A stretch of DNA of 64,000 bases from a virus. The first letter of the stretch is position 1. Each line of letters begins with the position of its first letter. The notes beneath the pieces are model-generated. The model saw only the letters and a list, made by a program, of their open reading frames with translations. It had not been told where the DNA came from and searched no databases. The DNA lies in IMG/VR virus record IMGVR_UViG_3300006033_000025, one strand, 5' to 3'. The translations under genes were made by a program, and so were the position numbers. Shown piece by piece: positions 11,030-38,996 of this stretch.

Positions 11030-11541
11030 GTCGCACCCGTGTCAGGATAGGCCGGATGCAGGAACTCGCGCGCCTTGCGCCATTCGCCGCCGTGCTCATG
11101 GGCCATCATGCACAGCGTTGTGAAGAACGCTTTGTCCTTCTCGAAGCGCGCCAGCCGCTGGCTGTCGAGCCCCTTCTGCCTGATGATGGCCTGGGGATCG
11201 CCCAGGTTCAGGATCAGGATGCGGCGCAGGTCGATGCGCGTCATGCCGCCGAGTTTGACCGTGTCGATGGTCTCGCGCGACGTCGTGATCGGATCATTGC
11301 GGCTGAGCACCTCGGTATCCGGTGCGCTCCAGTTCGCTGGGATCGTCTTGGTGTCACCAAACGATTCTTCGAACGCACGGATGCGTTCGCTGGTCAGCTC
11401 CCACTTCTCAGAGCCATCCGGGTAGCGGACGAGCTGGAAGAGCTGCGGGAGCTTGGTGCCATCGGGCAGTTCGGTGAAGATCGTCTTGTAGACGGCCTCC
11501 GGCGGGAGGCCGACCATCGTCTGTGCAGCGAGGTTGGTCAT
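11026..11541 (-). CDS. hypothetical protein
   Basis: 171 aa, ATGA overlap. Confidence 0.7.
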   Translation of the reverse strand: MTNLAAQTMVGLPPEAVYKTIFTELPDGTKLPQLFQLVRYPDGSEKWELTSERIRAFEESFGDTKTIPANWSAPDTEVLSRNDPITTSRETIDTVKLGGMTRIDLRRILILNLGDPQAIIRQKGLDSQRLARFEKDKAFFTTLCMMAHEHGGEWRKAREFLHPAYPDTGAT

Positions 11542-12035
11542 GATTTGCTCAGTGGTGGCGTCGTACGCGGCTCGCGGCCAGCGATCACGACGACTGGGTA
11601 GATACGGTTCGCGGCGCAGCCGACAGGCTGAGCGTCCAGGAAGCCCTTCGCAGCTTCCCAGGTGTGGAAGACCGCGAGATGGACAGACAGTTTCGGGCCG
11701 TCCTCACCGCGTGGTTCGCACGTGGCGCCGAACGACTTTTCCATCTTGTTGAAGGCACCGTTGACGTCGCCCTGCGACACGACCCACATGCAGCGGGTGT
11801 CACCGGGGCGTTCGACATGCTGCTCCAGCATGGCGACGGAATAGTCGAAACCCTGCGTGTCGAGTTCGTCGATGAGTTGGCAGGCATCATAGGCAAGCGC
11901 GACAAGCTGTTCGGGCTTCAGCGCCCTGAGCCCAGCGATGACATCGTCCTTGCGGGAGGCTTCGGAGTTCTTGACGTCAGCGTAGGCCGAGACGACCTTC
12001 TCGATGTCGTCAGCGAGCGGGTTGTTGGATCTCAT
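11538..12035 (-). CDS. hypothetical protein
   Basis: 165 aa, GGAG SD. Confidence 0.7.
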   Translation of the reverse strand: MRSNNPLADDIEKVVSAYADVKNSEASRKDDVIAGLRALKPEQLVALAYDACQLIDELDTQGFDYSVAMLEQHVERPGDTRCMWVVSQGDVNGAFNKMEKSFGATCEPRGEDGPKLSVHLAVFHTWEAAKGFLDAQPVGCAANRIYPVVVIAGREPRTTPPLSKS

Positions 12036-12316
12036 ACCGTGTGCTCCGTGGGTGGGTTGGTGGACCAGTCGACCAGGACATTCGTCGGAGCCTTTCCGAG
12101 CGTCTCATCTTCGAGACGCTGGTAGAGACCCTTCGGTGCATCGGCGTTGCAGACACCGATGCCGATGAACAGTTCGTCGATGCTCTTGGTGGTCCAAGAC
12201 TGGGACATGCGCCCAGCCCTGGACCATACCTGACAGAAGAACTCGCGCAGCGGCCTGTCATAGCCGACGATCAACTTTCCGAGCTTCCTGTTTCGCGGGA
12301 TGGTGTGCCGGCTCAT
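12032..12316 (-). CDS. hypothetical protein
   Basis: 94-aa C-terminal portion of track ORF 12032..12679; ATG at 12316 in ATGA overlap with pilin-like gene stop. Confidence 0.5.
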   Translation of the reverse strand: MSRHTIPRNRKLGKLIVGYDRPLREFFCQVWSRAGRMSQSWTTKSIDELFIGIGVCNADAPKGLYQRLEDETLGKAPTNVLVDWSTNPPTEHTV

Positions 12317-12621
12317 CGCCGTTCGACGTCCGGCGACCAGGGCTTCTTCGCTGCCGGCAGCTCCAGGACCAGTTCGGACCTGAAGAATCGCACTTCGGTG
12401 AAGCGCTCCTTGGCTTCCGGGCCGTTGTCGACCCGGCAGCTGTAGATGAGCTGGCCGCCCTGCGCTTCCTCGCGCATGATAACGACCTGTTGCCCAGTCG
12501 CCGAGACGTAGACCGTCGCGCCGACCTTCATCTTGTCGAACTTCGACATGGCGATGGCAGCGATGATGGCAATGATCGCGATGACGATCATCAGTTCGAT
12601 GAGGGTGAACGCGCGCTTCAC
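12313..12621 (-). CDS. type IV prepilin / pseudopilin-like protein (N-terminal methylation-type helix)
   Basis: N-terminus VKRAFTLIELMIVIAIIAIIAAIA matches the class III signal / N-terminal helix consensus (G/A)FTLIELMIV with Glu at +5; GTG start in GTGA overlap. Confidence 0.7.
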   Translation of the reverse strand: MKRAFTLIELMIVIAIIAIIAAIAMSKFDKMKVGATVYVSATGQQVVIMREEAQGGQLIYSCRVDNGPEAKERFTEVRFFRSELVLELPAAKKPWSPDVERR

Positions 12622-13355: not shown

Positions 13356-13520
13356 TCAGACAGGTTTCTTGATCATGGCTTGGCCGTACCAGAAGTCGCC
13401 GCGTTCGCCGCCATGGACGTAGAACGGTCCTCCGATCGGACAGAAGCCGCAGAGCATGGCCTCGTTGACCTTCTCGGCGAGCAGCTTGGTGCCGATCGCC
13501 TCGATGATGATGTAGTTCAT
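13356..13520 (-). CDS. hypothetical small protein
   Basis: 54-aa ORF below track threshold: MNYIIIEAIGTKLLAEKVNEAMLCGFCPIGGPFYVHGG...; GAAAGAG SD; ATGA overlap. Confidence 0.45.
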   Translation of the reverse strand: MNYIIIEAIGTKLLAEKVNEAMLCGFCPIGGPFYVHGGERGDFWYGQAMIKKPV

Positions 13521-14058: not shown

Positions 14059-14768
14059 GCGGGGTCTCCTGTCTCAGTGAACTCGAACTCGTTGGACTCA
14101 GCCAGTTCATCGAAGTATGCATCCGTTTGCTTGCTCTCGATGATCTTGTCGGCTTCGACATCCAGTTCCTTCGAAGCATCGCGAACGTCGTCCTGGAGAT
14201 CTCGTTCGACGCGGTCAGCGAAGGATTCGATGAGATTCGCATCTTCTTCTGGCACCCCGTTGTACACGCGCGCATAGAGCGACACGGACATCGTGTTGTA
14301 GTGTGAATAATGCGACCCGTAGCTGTTCCTGGTGATGCTGATCTCAAGCTCGAAGCCGTCATTCAGGTACGTGTTGTACAGCCGATAGATCTGCTTCCGC
14401 TCGTCCTTGGTGTAGTTCTTCCAGAGGCCACGACGCCACCACACCTTCTCCAGGTTCACGCACGAACTCGCCTTGTCTGGTCCGTGGCAGTGCCATGCCC
14501 AGTCAAGCCGACTGTCCTTGCCTTTCGAGAAGTCAGGAGCGCAGCGACTGCCGGTGTAGAAGGCCATGCCATCACCCTGGCTGTAACTGTACCGGAAGCC
14601 AATGTCGCACGTTGGATAGCCCCACTCATGCAGGTAGGCGATGAAGCAGTGGTGCAGATCATCGCTGCTATCCGTATACCGTTCGTTCATCCACTCCTTC
14701 GCGCGTTCCTTGGCTTTGCCTGTCAGCTCCTTGTAGGTGAACAGAGTCACTTCTATGGTGCGCGGCAT
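14055..14768 (-). CDS. hypothetical protein (Tyr/Trp-rich; lower-GC gene)
   Basis: start at internal ATG 14768 (MPRTIEVTLFTYKEL...); locally lower GC. Confidence 0.6.
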   Translation of the reverse strand: MPRTIEVTLFTYKELTGKAKERAKEWMNERYTDSSDDLHHCFIAYLHEWGYPTCDIGFRYSYSQGDGMAFYTGSRCAPDFSKGKDSRLDWAWHCHGPDKASSCVNLEKVWWRRGLWKNYTKDERKQIYRLYNTYLNDGFELEISITRNSYGSHYSHYNTMSVSLYARVYNGVPEEDANLIESFADRVERDLQDDVRDASKELDVEADKIIESKQTDAYFDELAESNEFEFTETGDPA

Positions 14769-15403
14769 GCCATCCCCACAGAATCCTGTTTCTTCGCATT
14801 GATGACCGAGTCGAGCTGACACGCGACCTCAGCCAGCCCAGTGGGCTTGATCTTCGGTTCGTTGCCACGCACATATTCCATGAGCGAAACATCGCTGTCG
14901 ACACGGCGGAAGCCGTGCTTCTCGTAGAACGTGTACAGCTCGTAGTTGCTCATCGCACCGTGCGAGTTCGACGCGAGGTAGATGCGCTGGAACGGGGAAC
15001 CGCTCAGGATCTGCTTGAGCATCCAAGATCCGAGGCCCTTGCGACGGAACTCGCGGGCGACCCACAGATCACTGATGTAGCAGAAGCTGCCCTTGCCGCC
15101 GGTGAGCGCCTGCCAAAGCAGGTAGCAGCGCGGCAGCCCATCACCCATGAGATTCGAATCGTACTCGGCGTTGATGGTGCCGAGCGCACCTTCACGAGCG
15201 ACCAGTACGGTCGCACGGACAAACGAAGCGTCCCATAGCTCGATGGTGACACCATCGCGGTTGATGATGACCTGACGCGTCGGTGCGACCATGTCCGGGT
15301 TTCGTCCCCAGTACATCTGGTTGCGTTCATCGCTGCTGAGGCCGAACTTGGTCGGCTTCGACGGCTCGCAGCACTTTGATTCACTCAGCATTGGCGTTTC
15401 CAT
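14753..15403 (-). CDS. GNAT-family N-acetyltransferase
   Basis: acetyl-CoA binding motif A region WVAREFRRKGLGSWMLKQIL; ATG at 15403 with AAGGAA SD; upstream part of track ORF is junk. Confidence 0.65.
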   Translation of the reverse strand: METPMLSESKCCEPSKPTKFGLSSDERNQMYWGRNPDMVAPTRQVIINRDGVTIELWDASFVRATVLVAREGALGTINAEYDSNLMGDGLPRCYLLWQALTGGKGSFCYISDLWVAREFRRKGLGSWMLKQILSGSPFQRIYLASNSHGAMSNYELYTFYEKHGFRRVDSDVSLMEYVRGNEPKIKPTGLAEVACQLDSVINAKKQDSVGMACRAP

Positions 15404-15695
15404 ATTGTTCCTTGATGGTTTTGATGTGTTCGAGCCAGAAGTCGTGATCGACTTCGACGAGGCCCTGAATGACCTCGTCGAGAGTCGGCATTCGCATGAA
15501 GAGCGTCTCGTTGCGATCGGTCCAGTACCGTTCTGAAACACGTGCGTTCAACTTCCCGCATCGGTCGCAGCCCTCCATGTGTAAGTACTGTGACGGGTCC
15601 ATCTCGTCGTCGAGACCTCCGACCTTCAGATCAAACCCGTGTTCCTTCGTCAGCACTCGGAACTTGTGGAAGCCCAACAGGCAGCGCAGTGACAT
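15381..15695 (-). CDS. hypothetical protein with CDRCGK motif
   Basis: start uncertain (15695 or 15602); overlaps next gene. Confidence 0.4.
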   Translation of the reverse strand: MSLRCLLGFHKFRVLTKEHGFDLKVGGLDDEMDPSQYLHMEGCDRCGKLNARVSERYWTDRNETLFMRMPTLDEVIQGLVEVDHDFWLEHIKTIKEQYGNANAE

Positions 15696-36713: not shown

Positions 36714-38996
36714 TCAGGTGAGGTTGAGGAACATGTCGGGCTCGTTGCGCAGGATCTTACCCCAGCGATCGTTGCCTTCGGACATCTTTCCGGTTTCTTT
36801 GTTCAGCTTGGGCACAGCGACGTCCATCTCGTCTTCGTACATGGACTCGGTGACCGTGATCTCTTCAGGCTTGATGAGGATAGCCCAGTTCATCGGGTGG
36901 TTGTTCCCAGGCCCGAAGACGTCGATGAGGTGCTGCCGTGCCTGGAGCACAGCCTCACGCTTCCGATCGGTGATGATCATGACTTCGTCGTGGATGTGCA
37001 GGATGTCCACGACGCCGCGCTTCTTGAGTTCGAGAAGCCCGTAGCAGAGCGCGTTGCGCGCTGCCGACTGGGTGACGTTCTCAATCGCGAGCTGCTTGGT
37101 GAACGGCTTCTCTTCGCCGGTCGCCTTGAGGATGGTGAGCCTTGGTTCCGAGTGGTTGTTCGTGAAGATCGAACGGACGAGCGGCTGACGCCAGCACACC
37201 GTCGGAGTCCACGGGCCACAACGAACGCGAAGGCTAACTCCTGTTGTTTCGTCGGGATCGAGTTCGATGCCGATCTTGTTTCGATCAGGAGCATAGTGCG
37301 ACTGGTACATCCGGTCGATTTCGTACTGTGCGTTGGCAGCACTGTCGCCGCACGCAGAGACGTTCTCAACCAAGCGGAGCAGCCAATCAGCCACGCGGGT
37401 GTACTCGGGGTACGCTTCGTTGAACAGACGGTGAATGTGATATGCAGCGAGAGCTGTAATCTCGGTGCAGTTGGTCTTCTCCATGATGTAGTTGAGCCGC
37501 TTGCTCTTCTCCCACCCAAGAGACAGACGCATCTCATTCAACTTCTCTTCAGTCACCTTGCTCTTCTTGTCCGCGAGAACGCCCAGTAGGACGTTTGCGT
37601 AGCCTGCGGCACCCATGCAGTAGCCGAGGCCGAGCACAGCAGACTTGGCGACCTGACGAACGGGATCCTTCTTGGTGATCGCGATCGACGTCATGGCCTT
37701 CCACGTCATGCAGTACGGATCGTTGTTGATGTCGCCGCCAAGGGCAGGGTCGAACATCTTGAACACATTCTTGGAGTCCGTCAGCCATCCTTCGACGCGG
37801 AACTCGACGTTCGCGAGGTCACCACGCACCAGACACTTGTCTGGCGGCATGCGGAACACGCGACGGATCGGTTCAGCAACCGACTTGTCGTGCTTCGGCA
37901 CGTTGTGCAGGTTCAGGCCCTTGCCAGATGATGGAGAGCTGAAGCGGAACGTGTGAGCACGGGCAAAGCCAAGCTCAACGTCGACTTCAGGAACGCCACG
38001 GAAGATCTTGGATCGACGACCGTGGCTGATCATCTTGTTGGCACGGCTGGTCTGCTTCAGCAGGTTCGTCACCTCCGGGTACTTGGCCTGGAGGATCGGG
38101 CTGAGCTTCTTCAGGCTCGTCGTCGGAAGCGTGACGTTCCACTTCTCGGTGATGAGCTTGCTCAGGCGCTGAACACGTACGGAACGGAGGGACCCGTCGC
38201 CCGTGTTGCGGTTGAACACTTCTGCGAGCTGCTCCATAGAGAGCAGTTCGGACGCGTTCTCCTGAGCATCGTTGGCATTCAAGTCCAGCTTCTCAATGAG
38301 CTTCACGAGCGCATCTGGATCTACGACGAAGTTGAACTGACGGACGTGGTGCGTCATCAGTGCGATCTCCTGCTCCCGTGCAGAGAGGCAGGCGATCTGG
38401 TAGTAGTAGATCTCTCGCATCGAATCGACGTCGCGGGTGTTGTACTGGGCCATTTCGGCACCAGTCAGCTGCTCCAGCGTCTTGCCAAAAGCCTCTTCGA
38501 CGTCGATCTTCAGCATGTGGACAGGAAGCTGAAGGAACGCGCCGAGCGCCTTCAGGCTGTAGCCACCAACGCACTCAGGCCACGCACCCATAGCGCCCTC
38601 GACGGTGCACCACACGTTCTTCGGCTGCGGGATGCCCAGCATGAAGCGGAGCACACGAATGTCGAAGGCCGCATTGTGACAGACGAAGACGTAGCGCGGG
38701 TCCTTAGCCAGCTCAGTGAGTAGCGCGATGAGGTCTTTGGGCGCCTCACCGTTCGGCGTCAGCCACACCTCAGTCGCGCTGTCTGCAATGGCAACAGCGA
38801 TTGACGTGAGATAGCTGTTCTTGATGTACTGCCTGAGCGTCATCGACGACAGCGAGATGCCGCGTCGCTCATTCATGTACGTTTCAACGTCGACGAAGAC
38901 TGGAATCAGCGTCGACAGTGGTCCCTCGGTCGCGTAGCGCCGACGGGCGCACGTGACCGAGGCCACGGTTTGCACCGTGGTCGGTTCAGTCAGCAT
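36714..38996 (-). CDS. DNA polymerase, family A, with 3'-5' exonuclease domain
   Basis: exo I VDVETY, exo II HNAAFD, exo III YNTRD; pol motif A DLANVEFRV, motif B RQVAKSAVLGLGY, motif C IHDEV. Confidence 0.9.
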   Translation of the reverse strand: MLTEPTTVQTVASVTCARRRYATEGPLSTLIPVFVDVETYMNERRGISLSSMTLRQYIKNSYLTSIAVAIADSATEVWLTPNGEAPKDLIALLTELAKDPRYVFVCHNAAFDIRVLRFMLGIPQPKNVWCTVEGAMGAWPECVGGYSLKALGAFLQLPVHMLKIDVEEAFGKTLEQLTGAEMAQYNTRDVDSMREIYYYQIACLSAREQEIALMTHHVRQFNFVVDPDALVKLIEKLDLNANDAQENASELLSMEQLAEVFNRNTGDGSLRSVRVQRLSKLITEKWNVTLPTTSLKKLSPILQAKYPEVTNLLKQTSRANKMISHGRRSKIFRGVPEVDVELGFARAHTFRFSSPSSGKGLNLHNVPKHDKSVAEPIRRVFRMPPDKCLVRGDLANVEFRVEGWLTDSKNVFKMFDPALGGDINNDPYCMTWKAMTSIAITKKDPVRQVAKSAVLGLGYCMGAAGYANVLLGVLADKKSKVTEEKLNEMRLSLGWEKSKRLNYIMEKTNCTEITALAAYHIHRLFNEAYPEYTRVADWLLRLVENVSACGDSAANAQYEIDRMYQSHYAPDRNKIGIELDPDETTGVSLRVRCGPWTPTVCWRQPLVRSIFTNNHSEPRLTILKATGEEKPFTKQLAIENVTQSAARNALCYGLLELKKRGVVDILHIHDEVMIITDRKREAVLQARQHLIDVFGPGNNHPMNWAILIKPEEITVTESMYEDEMDVAVPKLNKETGKMSEGNDRWGKILRNEPDMFLNLT

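Follow-up and report, generated by a model that had tools for sequence, protein, structure and literature searches.

Type IV pilins and the pseudopilins of type II secretion systems (T2SS) begin with a class III signal, which comprises a short, hydrophilic and basic leader ending in a small residue at the cleavage site (glycine, with alanine tolerated), a phenylalanine or methionine at +1, a glutamate at +5 and a hydrophobic segment of about 20 residues (alpha1N). Proteins with class III signals are inserted with the N-terminus inside and the C-terminus outside (N-in/C-out), and in canonical pilins helix alpha1 has approx. 50 residues, its C-terminal half packing on a beta-sheet. Here we analyse a 102-residue protein encoded in the IMG/VR virus record IMGVR_UViG_3300006033_000025, in a stretch of 64,000 nucleotides that is referred to below as the window. 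The window protein has all the N-terminal elements listed above; in contrast, it lacks alpha1C and the alpha-beta head of the pilins, and is predicted to carry an SH3-like barrel instead. Other differences are that its family mostly has alanine, not glycine, at position -1, that the window protein itself has alanine for Gly14, and that the gene belongs to a phage and has no assembly genes in its vicinity. The protein is best explained as a small bitopic envelope protein of two modules, a class III signal and an SH3-like barrel of about 52 residues with a short tail.

Phage genes with pilin-like products are, as such, already known. P-FimU from F10-like Pseudomonas prophages and P-PilA from Xylella prophages are phage pilin-like proteins that block other phages; P-FimU is incorporated at the pilus tip, and virulent phages also carry PilA-like genes, including truncated forms of around 60 residues (Sztanko et al., Cell Rep 2026, PMC12952977). 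The role proposed or shown for these mimics is protection against pilus-dependent phages. The window gene resembles them in being a phage gene with a pilin-type N-terminus, and in the truncated P-PilA forms, too, the N-terminal helix is all that is left of the pilin. On the other hand, P-FimU and P-PilA are homologous to host pilins over their whole length and overlay pilin structures, whereas the window protein shares only the signal and alpha1N, and its similarity stops at about residue 30-40 in the PHROGs, NCBIfam and genome matches (the PHROGs include a 'pilin' moron family). Modular pilins, such as PilB and PilC of Streptococcus sanguinis, have a class III signal, a complete pilin module and a further module grafted through a short linker (Raynaud et al. 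2021, PMC8179133), and they can polymerise because the complete pilin module is kept. The window protein also has a class III signal followed by a non-pilin module joined by a short linker, but its pilin module is reduced to alpha1N. From these comparisons, the window protein would work most like a truncated pilin with a foreign head. A third group with which it can be compared is formed by T4 Sp, Imm and RI, T5 Llp and HK97 gp15, proteins of about 80-100 residues that carry an anchor or signal at the N-terminus and a domain facing the periplasm, are encoded by early or accessory genes and have lipoprotein-anchored variants; this likeness is of architecture only, no relationship in sequence or fold having been found.

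An earlier sequence-only reading of the window had described a 102-residue open reading frame (ORF) with the N-terminal helix that is the hallmark of type IV pilins, a leader of four residues, alanine at -1 and glutamate at +5. The translation agrees in every one of these points: the product starts, from a GTG codon, with M-K-R-A and continues with FTLIELMIVIAIIAIIAAIA, the full N-terminus being (M)KRAFTLIELMIVIAIIAIIAAIAMSKF. The pilin-type helix is likewise borne out by profile searches, in which residues 2-25 score above the cut-offs of Pfam PF07963 (N_methyl; E 5.8e-8, 32.4 bits versus a gathering score of 21.2) and NCBIfam TIGR02532 (IV_pilin_GFxxxE; E 7.8e-9, 35 bits versus a cut-off of 16.3), and this N-terminus is a genuine, conserved class III signal. 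Its motif is the only one of this type in the six-frame translation of the window. The protein belongs to the broad set of 'N_methyl domain-containing' proteins. The sequence-only reading had also named an alternative upstream start, giving a different N-terminus, as something that would overturn it; a longer N-terminus is excluded because there is an in-frame stop 20 codons 5' of the GTG, with no ATG, GTG or TTG in between. In the alignment of relatives, the homologues begin at a Met that is equivalent to the GTG of the window gene.

The ORF is a real coding gene under selection, as indicated by a ratio of non-synonymous to synonymous substitution rates (dN/dS) of 0.16 against an 82%-identical relative, L089, together with its coupled start and stop. 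The GTG overlaps the TGA of the upstream gene of 231 residues (GTGA, 12618-12621), and its own stop, TGA (12313-12315), shares bases with the start ATG of the 94-residue gene downstream (ATGA, 12313-12316). Given these overlaps at both ends, the gene is part of a tightly coupled polycistronic block. The differences between L089 and the window gene are mostly at third positions (14/7/34 for the first, second and third codon positions), and L089 shows the same GTGA overlap at the start and the same downstream order of genes encoding 102, 94 and 165 residues.

The structure of the window protein was predicted with AlphaFold2 in two runs, with 12 and with 58 sequences, that gave the same model with a predicted local distance difference test score (pLDDT) of 82 and 91, respectively. 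In this model, residues 1-6 are coil and residues 7-26 form a single helix, followed by a short linker, a barrel and a tail of low confidence. The strands comprise residues 36-39, 45-54, 57-65 and 74-80, plus a short final strand, and together they form a small, partly open SH3-like barrel of five strands. The helix stops at residue 26, and the model shows no long alpha1 packed on an antiparallel beta-sheet head; consistent with this, no match was found between the model and pilin structures. By its predicted fold, the window protein is neither a pilin nor a pseudopilin. To call the gene pilin-like or pseudopilin-like, as the sequence-only reading did, was thus an overstatement, given that only the first 24 or so residues are pilin-like and the rest is an SH3-like barrel. 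This barrel resembles the small barrels of KOW, Tudor, chromo, NdhS, PsaE and HspQ proteins at the level of the fold only, with 10-26% identity. No sequence relationship of the barrel was detected to any PDB chain, in a sequence-profile search, or to any Pfam family, and the only matches in BFVD were uncharacterised small barrels. YajC, which also consists of a transmembrane (TM) segment and a small barrel, was considered as a relative and rejected (hhalign probability 1%). The residues that characterise the barrel of the window protein are G34 ... C-R63-x-D65-N-G67-P ... R73-[FY] ... E76 ... F79 ... E83-L84.

When a profile of the barrel only, with the window protein as its first row, was compared with 1.84 billion representative proteins, 63 matches were obtained. 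Approximately 55 of these are proteins of 86-151 residues in which a C-terminal barrel stands behind a hydrophobic N-terminus. They share with the window protein the pattern G ... [CV]-R-[IV]-D-N-G ... R-[YF] ... E ... F ... E-L, for which we refer to them as the CRIDNG-barrel family; columns G34, R63, D65, G67, R73, F79 and E83 are nearly invariant, and a C-terminal ending V/I/L-E-K/R is common. A separate word-indexed search recovered 11 relatives of 95-110 residues, whose alignment shows the barrel motif G ... C-R-I-D-N-G-P ... R-Y ... E-V ... F ... E-L. The N-termini of the family are diverse. Of about 58 members, a class III motif is present in 28, about six have clear remnants of it (AFPLIGF, AFEIVEL, or truncated forms), and some 24 have unrelated plain TM anchors, counting P0047, which has a lipoprotein-like signal, and P0048, which has a zinc ribbon and a basic stretch before the TM segment. 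In agreement with this, Pfam N_methyl matches 27 of 58 members, and the barrel is covered by no Pfam family. What defines the family is thus its barrel rather than the pilin signal, with around half of its members using non-pilin or degenerate anchors. Some relatives have already been named automatically as 'prepilin-type N-terminal cleavage/methylation domain-containing protein'.

The family appears to be previously undescribed, and so far it seems to occur only on phage-like metagenomic contigs; all the contexts seen are small, tightly packed, co-directional gene arrays, as is typical of phages. No family members were found in GenBank phages by tblastn. The full-length alignment retrieved 80 loci from IMG/VR, and the ones that were looked at proved to be ordinary pilins or else class III proteins whose match was confined to the N-terminus. 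The sole IMG/VR match of the barrel alignment, L085:2891-4297, was discarded because it is a portal-like protein containing 'VYIVRVDNGPEKTYSLNEVFHLRGF', in which 'RVDNGPE' matches by chance. In 185,579 species genomes, the full-length alignment gave, among the matches listed, only canonical pilins covering residues 1 to approx. 60, which does not prove that the family is absent from bacterial genomes. A comparison of composition, used as a GC proxy, gives weak support (p = 0.015) to the idea that the class III and the plain-anchor members come from different hosts. P0048 (L170:140-550), in which a zinc ribbon (CPEC...CRSC) at the N-terminus precedes the basic stretch and the TM segment, is an unusual fusion and a useful natural marker of topology.

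Where it is present, the pilin-type helix is strongly conserved. The alignment of the 11 relatives shows a nearly invariant M-[KR]-[KR]-[AG]-FTLIELMIVIAIIAIIAAIAIPNL, and the 17 members of the FTLIELM type have a mean identity of 82% over mature residues 1-22, versus 35% in the barrel. In the first 24 codons of the window gene and of its homologues at loci L001, L002 and L004, there are 7-9 synonymous codon differences and no non-synonymous difference in the 20 mature codons; swaps between lysine and arginine in the leader are the only amino-acid changes. These loci span at least three phage lineages (L001/L002, L004 and the window phage); this gene is all that the window has in common with L001 and L002, while it shares some distant genes, few in number, with L004. 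By these comparisons, alpha1N is under very strong and specific constraint, far beyond that expected of a generic anchor. Its conservation argues for a sequence-specific partner, because a mere anchor would drift, as the members with plain anchors show; the obvious candidates are the prepilin peptidase, the assembly platform and, by way of Glu+5 and the N-terminus, other pilins. Glu+5 is retained, the Pro22/IPNL motif is kept in most relatives and Pro22 has been lost in the window protein only, which also has the alanine at the usual Gly14 position mentioned above. No 'IIAII' N-terminus was found among the genome pilins listed and the viral pilins retrieved.

Another characteristic feature of this family is the residue that precedes the predicted cleavage site. 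Alanine is found at -1 in 18 of the 28 class III members and glycine in the other 10. Two control sets were retrieved with patterns that left position -1 unconstrained: 64 distinct pilin-like N-termini from viral contigs (63 with glycine and one with alanine), and 83 from bacterial genomes, all of them with glycine among the matches listed. The enrichment of Ala(-1) in the family relative to the viral set is highly significant (Fisher p = 4e-11), and Ala(-1) is a trait of the family and its majority state. Outside the family, the single Ala(-1) in the set of 64 viral controls belongs to an identical 128-residue protein present on two viral contigs of 189 and 365 kb (L021:10001-10387 and L033:10001-10387), which starts MKKAFTLIELMIVVAILGLLAAIVVGGSGGCS and has an unrelated C-terminal part. 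Previously, work in S. sanguinis showed that a G-1A change in PilE1 affects neither processing nor assembly, with a similar finding reported for P. aeruginosa; serine at -1 blocks processing and is dominant negative, and pilins that are unprocessed or carry E5A have a dominant-negative effect on the formation of filaments (PMC6497953). The authors of PilFind also consider that cleavage occurs after Gly or Ala (PMC3244431). By analogy, Ala(-1) is compatible with cleavage by a prepilin peptidase, which is predicted for the window protein. The sequence-only reading had regarded processing as uncertain on account of the alanine and the leader of only four residues; both are as described, and the doubt over the alanine is largely settled by the published G-1A mutagenesis (PMC6497953). 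The idea that Ala(-1) blocks or slows cleavage was downgraded for the same reason, i.e., that G-1A is harmless in S. sanguinis and, by the similar report, in P. aeruginosa.

Taking these data together, we tentatively propose, as a reading that could well be right but in which our confidence is limited, that the window protein is a membrane-tethered and probably periplasmic barrel effector with a genuine prepilin signal, which enters the host pilin pool and acts at the platform of a type IV filament. The protein would be inserted N-in/C-out, and the host prepilin peptidase would probably remove the M-K-R-A leader, since PilD enzymes tolerate Ala(-1). The mature protein would then reside in the inner membrane among the host pilins or pseudopilins, with the barrel facing the periplasm. 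The lipoprotein-like signal of P0047 supports a periplasmic barrel, and so does P0048, where a cytoplasmic-type zinc ribbon is followed by KPRRYR and then by the TM segment. Because alpha1C and the pilin alpha-beta head are absent, the protein would not be a structural pilin and could not build a filament; its most likely action would be at the assembly platform, as a non-polymerisable competitor, a terminator or a locally presented barrel. The outcome might be a type IV pilus or a type II secretion system that is modified or hindered, for instance to exclude superinfecting phages. It is plausible that pili or secretion would be disturbed in this way, or superinfecting phages kept out. In the literature, the reading finds support in P-FimU and the PilA-like phage genes, including the 60-residue truncations of virulent phages, in the dominant-negative effects of pilins that fail to assemble, and in the modular pilins.

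Several observations weigh against this proposal. Neither the window nor the related loci of 20 kb showed a gene for type IV pili or T2SS or a prepilin peptidase gene, and each of them has only one class III gene. No function could be transferred by homology from PADLOC, the PHROGs function categories, the PDB sequence search or BFVD. In about half of the members, a degenerate or plain TM anchor takes the place of the class III signal. One of these members, P0015, has a plain anchor, and yet its synteny (Ro60/TROVE-like ... family gene ... DUF1643) is that of P0004, P0007 and P0040, which are class III members; among orthologues, therefore, anchors were swapped or have degenerated, and the barrel evidently can work without pilin features. 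The anchor types are also interleaved when the barrel sequences are clustered by average linkage, a weak inference given a domain of about 60 residues. Finally, the positive-inside counts are ambiguous, with several plain-anchor members having no basic residue before the TM segment and several such residues after it. These counts could reflect mis-called starts or an opposite orientation, and because of them the periplasmic placement of the barrel is likely and not proven.

These observations raise the possibility that the class III-like N-terminus is an interchangeable and perhaps vestigial signal-anchor, and that the barrel does something that has no relation to type IV filaments, for example binding to a target in the periplasm or cell wall, the timing of lysis, or a block of DNA entry like that of other small membrane-tethered exclusion proteins. 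Such an explanation, the main rival, which we regard as possible and on the unlikely side, would accommodate the plain, degenerate or lipoprotein-like N-termini of a family defined by its barrel, the unrelated anchor of the syntenic orthologue P0015, the interleaving of anchor types and the fact that pilus or secretion genes are not seen nearby; it would also fit with small SH3-like barrels being common as uncharacterised phage products in BFVD. It does not account easily for a mature N-terminus that is invariant, with synonymous changes only, across lineages whose barrels are approx. 35-45% identical. A buried Glu+5 and an exact FTLIELM... sequence would be costly without a specific partner, and the retention of Pro22 and the IPNL motif in most relatives points in the same direction.

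Another alternative is that the protein is a true filament subunit. Through alpha1N it would polymerise into the type IV pili of the host, or into its T2SS pseudopilus, and would present the barrel along the filament or at the tip, as a 'modular pilin' of minimal size; like P-FimU, it would mask receptors, as the sequence-only reading had also suggested, or alter the pilus. The class III assembly interface with Glu+5 is canonical, Ala(-1) permits processing and assembly in two systems, the phage protein P-FimU enters the pilus tip and blocks phages, truncated PilA-like genes of 60 residues occur in virulent phages, and modular pilins with grafted domains are widespread (PMC8179133). Nevertheless, this alternative is improbable: there is no alpha1C, no pilin head and no match to a pilin fold, whereas the modular pilins described so far keep a complete module. 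Gly14 is replaced by alanine and Pro22 is missing in the window protein, and the plain-anchor orthologues cannot polymerise, yet they persist. A role in the virion, as a structural or injected component of the particle, or in lysis, as a holin-, antiholin- or spanin-like protein, is very improbable in spite of the small, single-pass membrane character of the protein. Position alone does not speak against such a role, given that structural and lysis genes are scattered in the genomes of large phages. However, the gene is embedded in a long run of co-directional replication genes and ORFans in which no structural or lysis genes were detected nearby, it has no conserved partner gene across lineages, and neither PHROGs nor Pfam connects it with proteins of the virion or of lysis.

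The proposal that the helix brings the barrel to the pilus or secretion machinery has consequences whichever way it falls. If true, the protein would represent a compact and transferable inhibitor or probe of type IV filament assembly and a new kind of superinfection-exclusion factor; if not, a pilin N-terminal motif in a phage protein is no evidence of a pilin, which matters for automated annotation. The plain-anchor orthologues provide a natural control for the pilin-type helix. The barrel family, its apparent restriction to phage-like contigs, its interchangeable anchors and its Ala(-1) bias appear to be new, and the design differs from the full-length pilin copies recently documented in Pseudomonas prophages in that only the assembly and targeting helix is present, joined to an unrelated barrel, in large uncultivated phages. 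As a more general and speculative idea, which we consider doubtful, large phages may carry a hitherto unrecognised class of 'mini-pilins' composed of a class III signal, alpha1N and a small non-pilin effector. The host peptidase and pilin pool would deliver the effector to the platform of type IV pili or the T2SS, where it would act as a non-polymerisable, chain-terminating or platform-blocking subunit, so that pili or secretion would be shut early and competing phages excluded. A preference for Ala(-1) might tune the handling by the peptidase, and the same strategy could extend to further mini class III proteins, of unrelated sequence, that are encoded on large viral contigs.

Table 1. Coordinates of the 102-residue gene, its parts and other annotated genes of the window
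Feature	Position	Strand	Remarks
Complete coding sequence, 102 residues plus stop	12313..12621	minus	ORF listing and translation; class III signal, linker, SH3-like barrel, short tail
Leader peptide, codons 1-4 (GTG-Met, Lys, Arg, Ala)	12610..12621	minus	Predicted prepilin-peptidase site after Ala(-1)
Hydrophobic alpha1N-type segment, residues 5-26 (FTLIELMIVIAIIAIIAAIAMS)	12544..12609	minus	Phe+1, Glu+5; single predicted transmembrane helix
Basic linker between helix and barrel, residues 27-33 (KFDKMKV)	12523..12543	minus	Coil with lower pLDDT in the AlphaFold2 model; length and sequence vary in the alignment
SH3/Tudor/KOW-like five-stranded beta-barrel (predicted), residues 34-85	12367..12522	minus	
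C-terminal tail, residues 86-102, ends PDVERR	12316..12366	minus	AlphaFold2 pLDDT 69-73 (low)
Upstream gene, 231 residues	12618..13313	minus	No family assignment; translationally coupled to the 102-residue gene
Downstream gene, 94 residues	12032..12316	minus	No family assignment; translationally coupled to the 102-residue gene
Family-A DNA polymerase	36714-38996		Best matches in Liberibacter phages, only about 25% identity

In the window, all sizeable ORFs are on the minus strand, the GC content is about 60% and the cumulative GC skew climbs steadily; neither tRNAs nor any other Rfam match were detected in the 64 kb. The recognisable genes encode the family-A DNA polymerase included in Table 1, a helicase, an ATP-dependent ligase, a polymerase-like protein and a GNAT acetyltransferase, and most of the others are ORFans. 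The acetyltransferase domain (Pfam Acetyltransf_7/1, E approx. 5e-8; 14753-15541, minus strand) is located about 2 kb upstream of the 102-residue gene in the same co-directional block. None of the larger window ORFs scanned matched virion-structural families, and PADLOC gave no match. The gene is phage-encoded, as had been read from the sequence; the window is phage-like, with its ORFs in a single orientation. The gene had also been assigned to an early region of the phage, which is borne out in part: the setting is phage-like, with replication genes and, among the larger ORFs scanned, no virion-structural match. A non-structural or replication region is a fair description of the neighbourhood, while early timing would be an assumption. 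A scan of the coding strand from 9 to 18 kb of the window detected neither a sigma-70-like promoter nor a terminator.

The source of this DNA is a novel large phage. GenBank phages gave no match either by megablast with the 5 kb around the gene or by tblastn with the protein. The near-identical database protein P0001 differs only in the Val recorded at the GTG start versus Met; its cluster includes a contig of 200,781 bp, and other relatives are on contigs of 87-198 kb. With respect to the surroundings of the family gene, no neighbour is common to all lineages. A 54-residue protein of the window (13356-13520, minus strand) and the product of L004:10527-10688 share '...GGPF...G...W.AQAM', a similarity judged by eye, and the 165-residue protein of the window (11538-12035, minus strand) is 27% identical (E 1e-11) to a 155-residue protein of L004 (11887-12354), a distant pair found near the family gene in these two loci only. 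The window and the contig of about 198 kb behind L004 thus appear to keep a loose, rearranged synteny between phages that are otherwise very divergent.

Other loci of the family have a different organisation. In L001 (38-7724), L002 (119-7719) and L086 (107-3880), Rfam detects 20, 22 and 10 tRNAs, respectively, within the first 8 kb or so of the locus. These arrays are located directly 5' of a Ro60/TROVE-like gene (about 490-546 residues), and the family gene is found 0.2-0.4 kb further on. In several lineages, the gene next downstream of the family gene encodes a small membrane or lipoprotein-like product (L001:10297-10491, L002:10321-10515, L004:10294-10530 and L086:6293-6772), although in L086 it is the second gene downstream. 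These products include a hydrophobic protein of 64 residues with apparently two TM segments, another of 78 residues with apparently a single one, and a protein of 159 residues with an LTAC lipobox. They are not homologous across lineages, and in the product of the downstream gene of the window no hydrophobic segment is obvious.

A second, unrelated family of proteins of 76-94 residues was found on IMG/VR contigs (L044:10001, L047:10001, L057:9995, L059:2751 and L072:3410). Its members have a canonical class III signal with Gly(-1) and a C-terminal domain with two cysteines (...RC[IV][NE]GF.F ... G..R.I.D..G.G[VI].C), and, judging from this arrangement, they look like further 'mini-pilins' with non-pilin heads.

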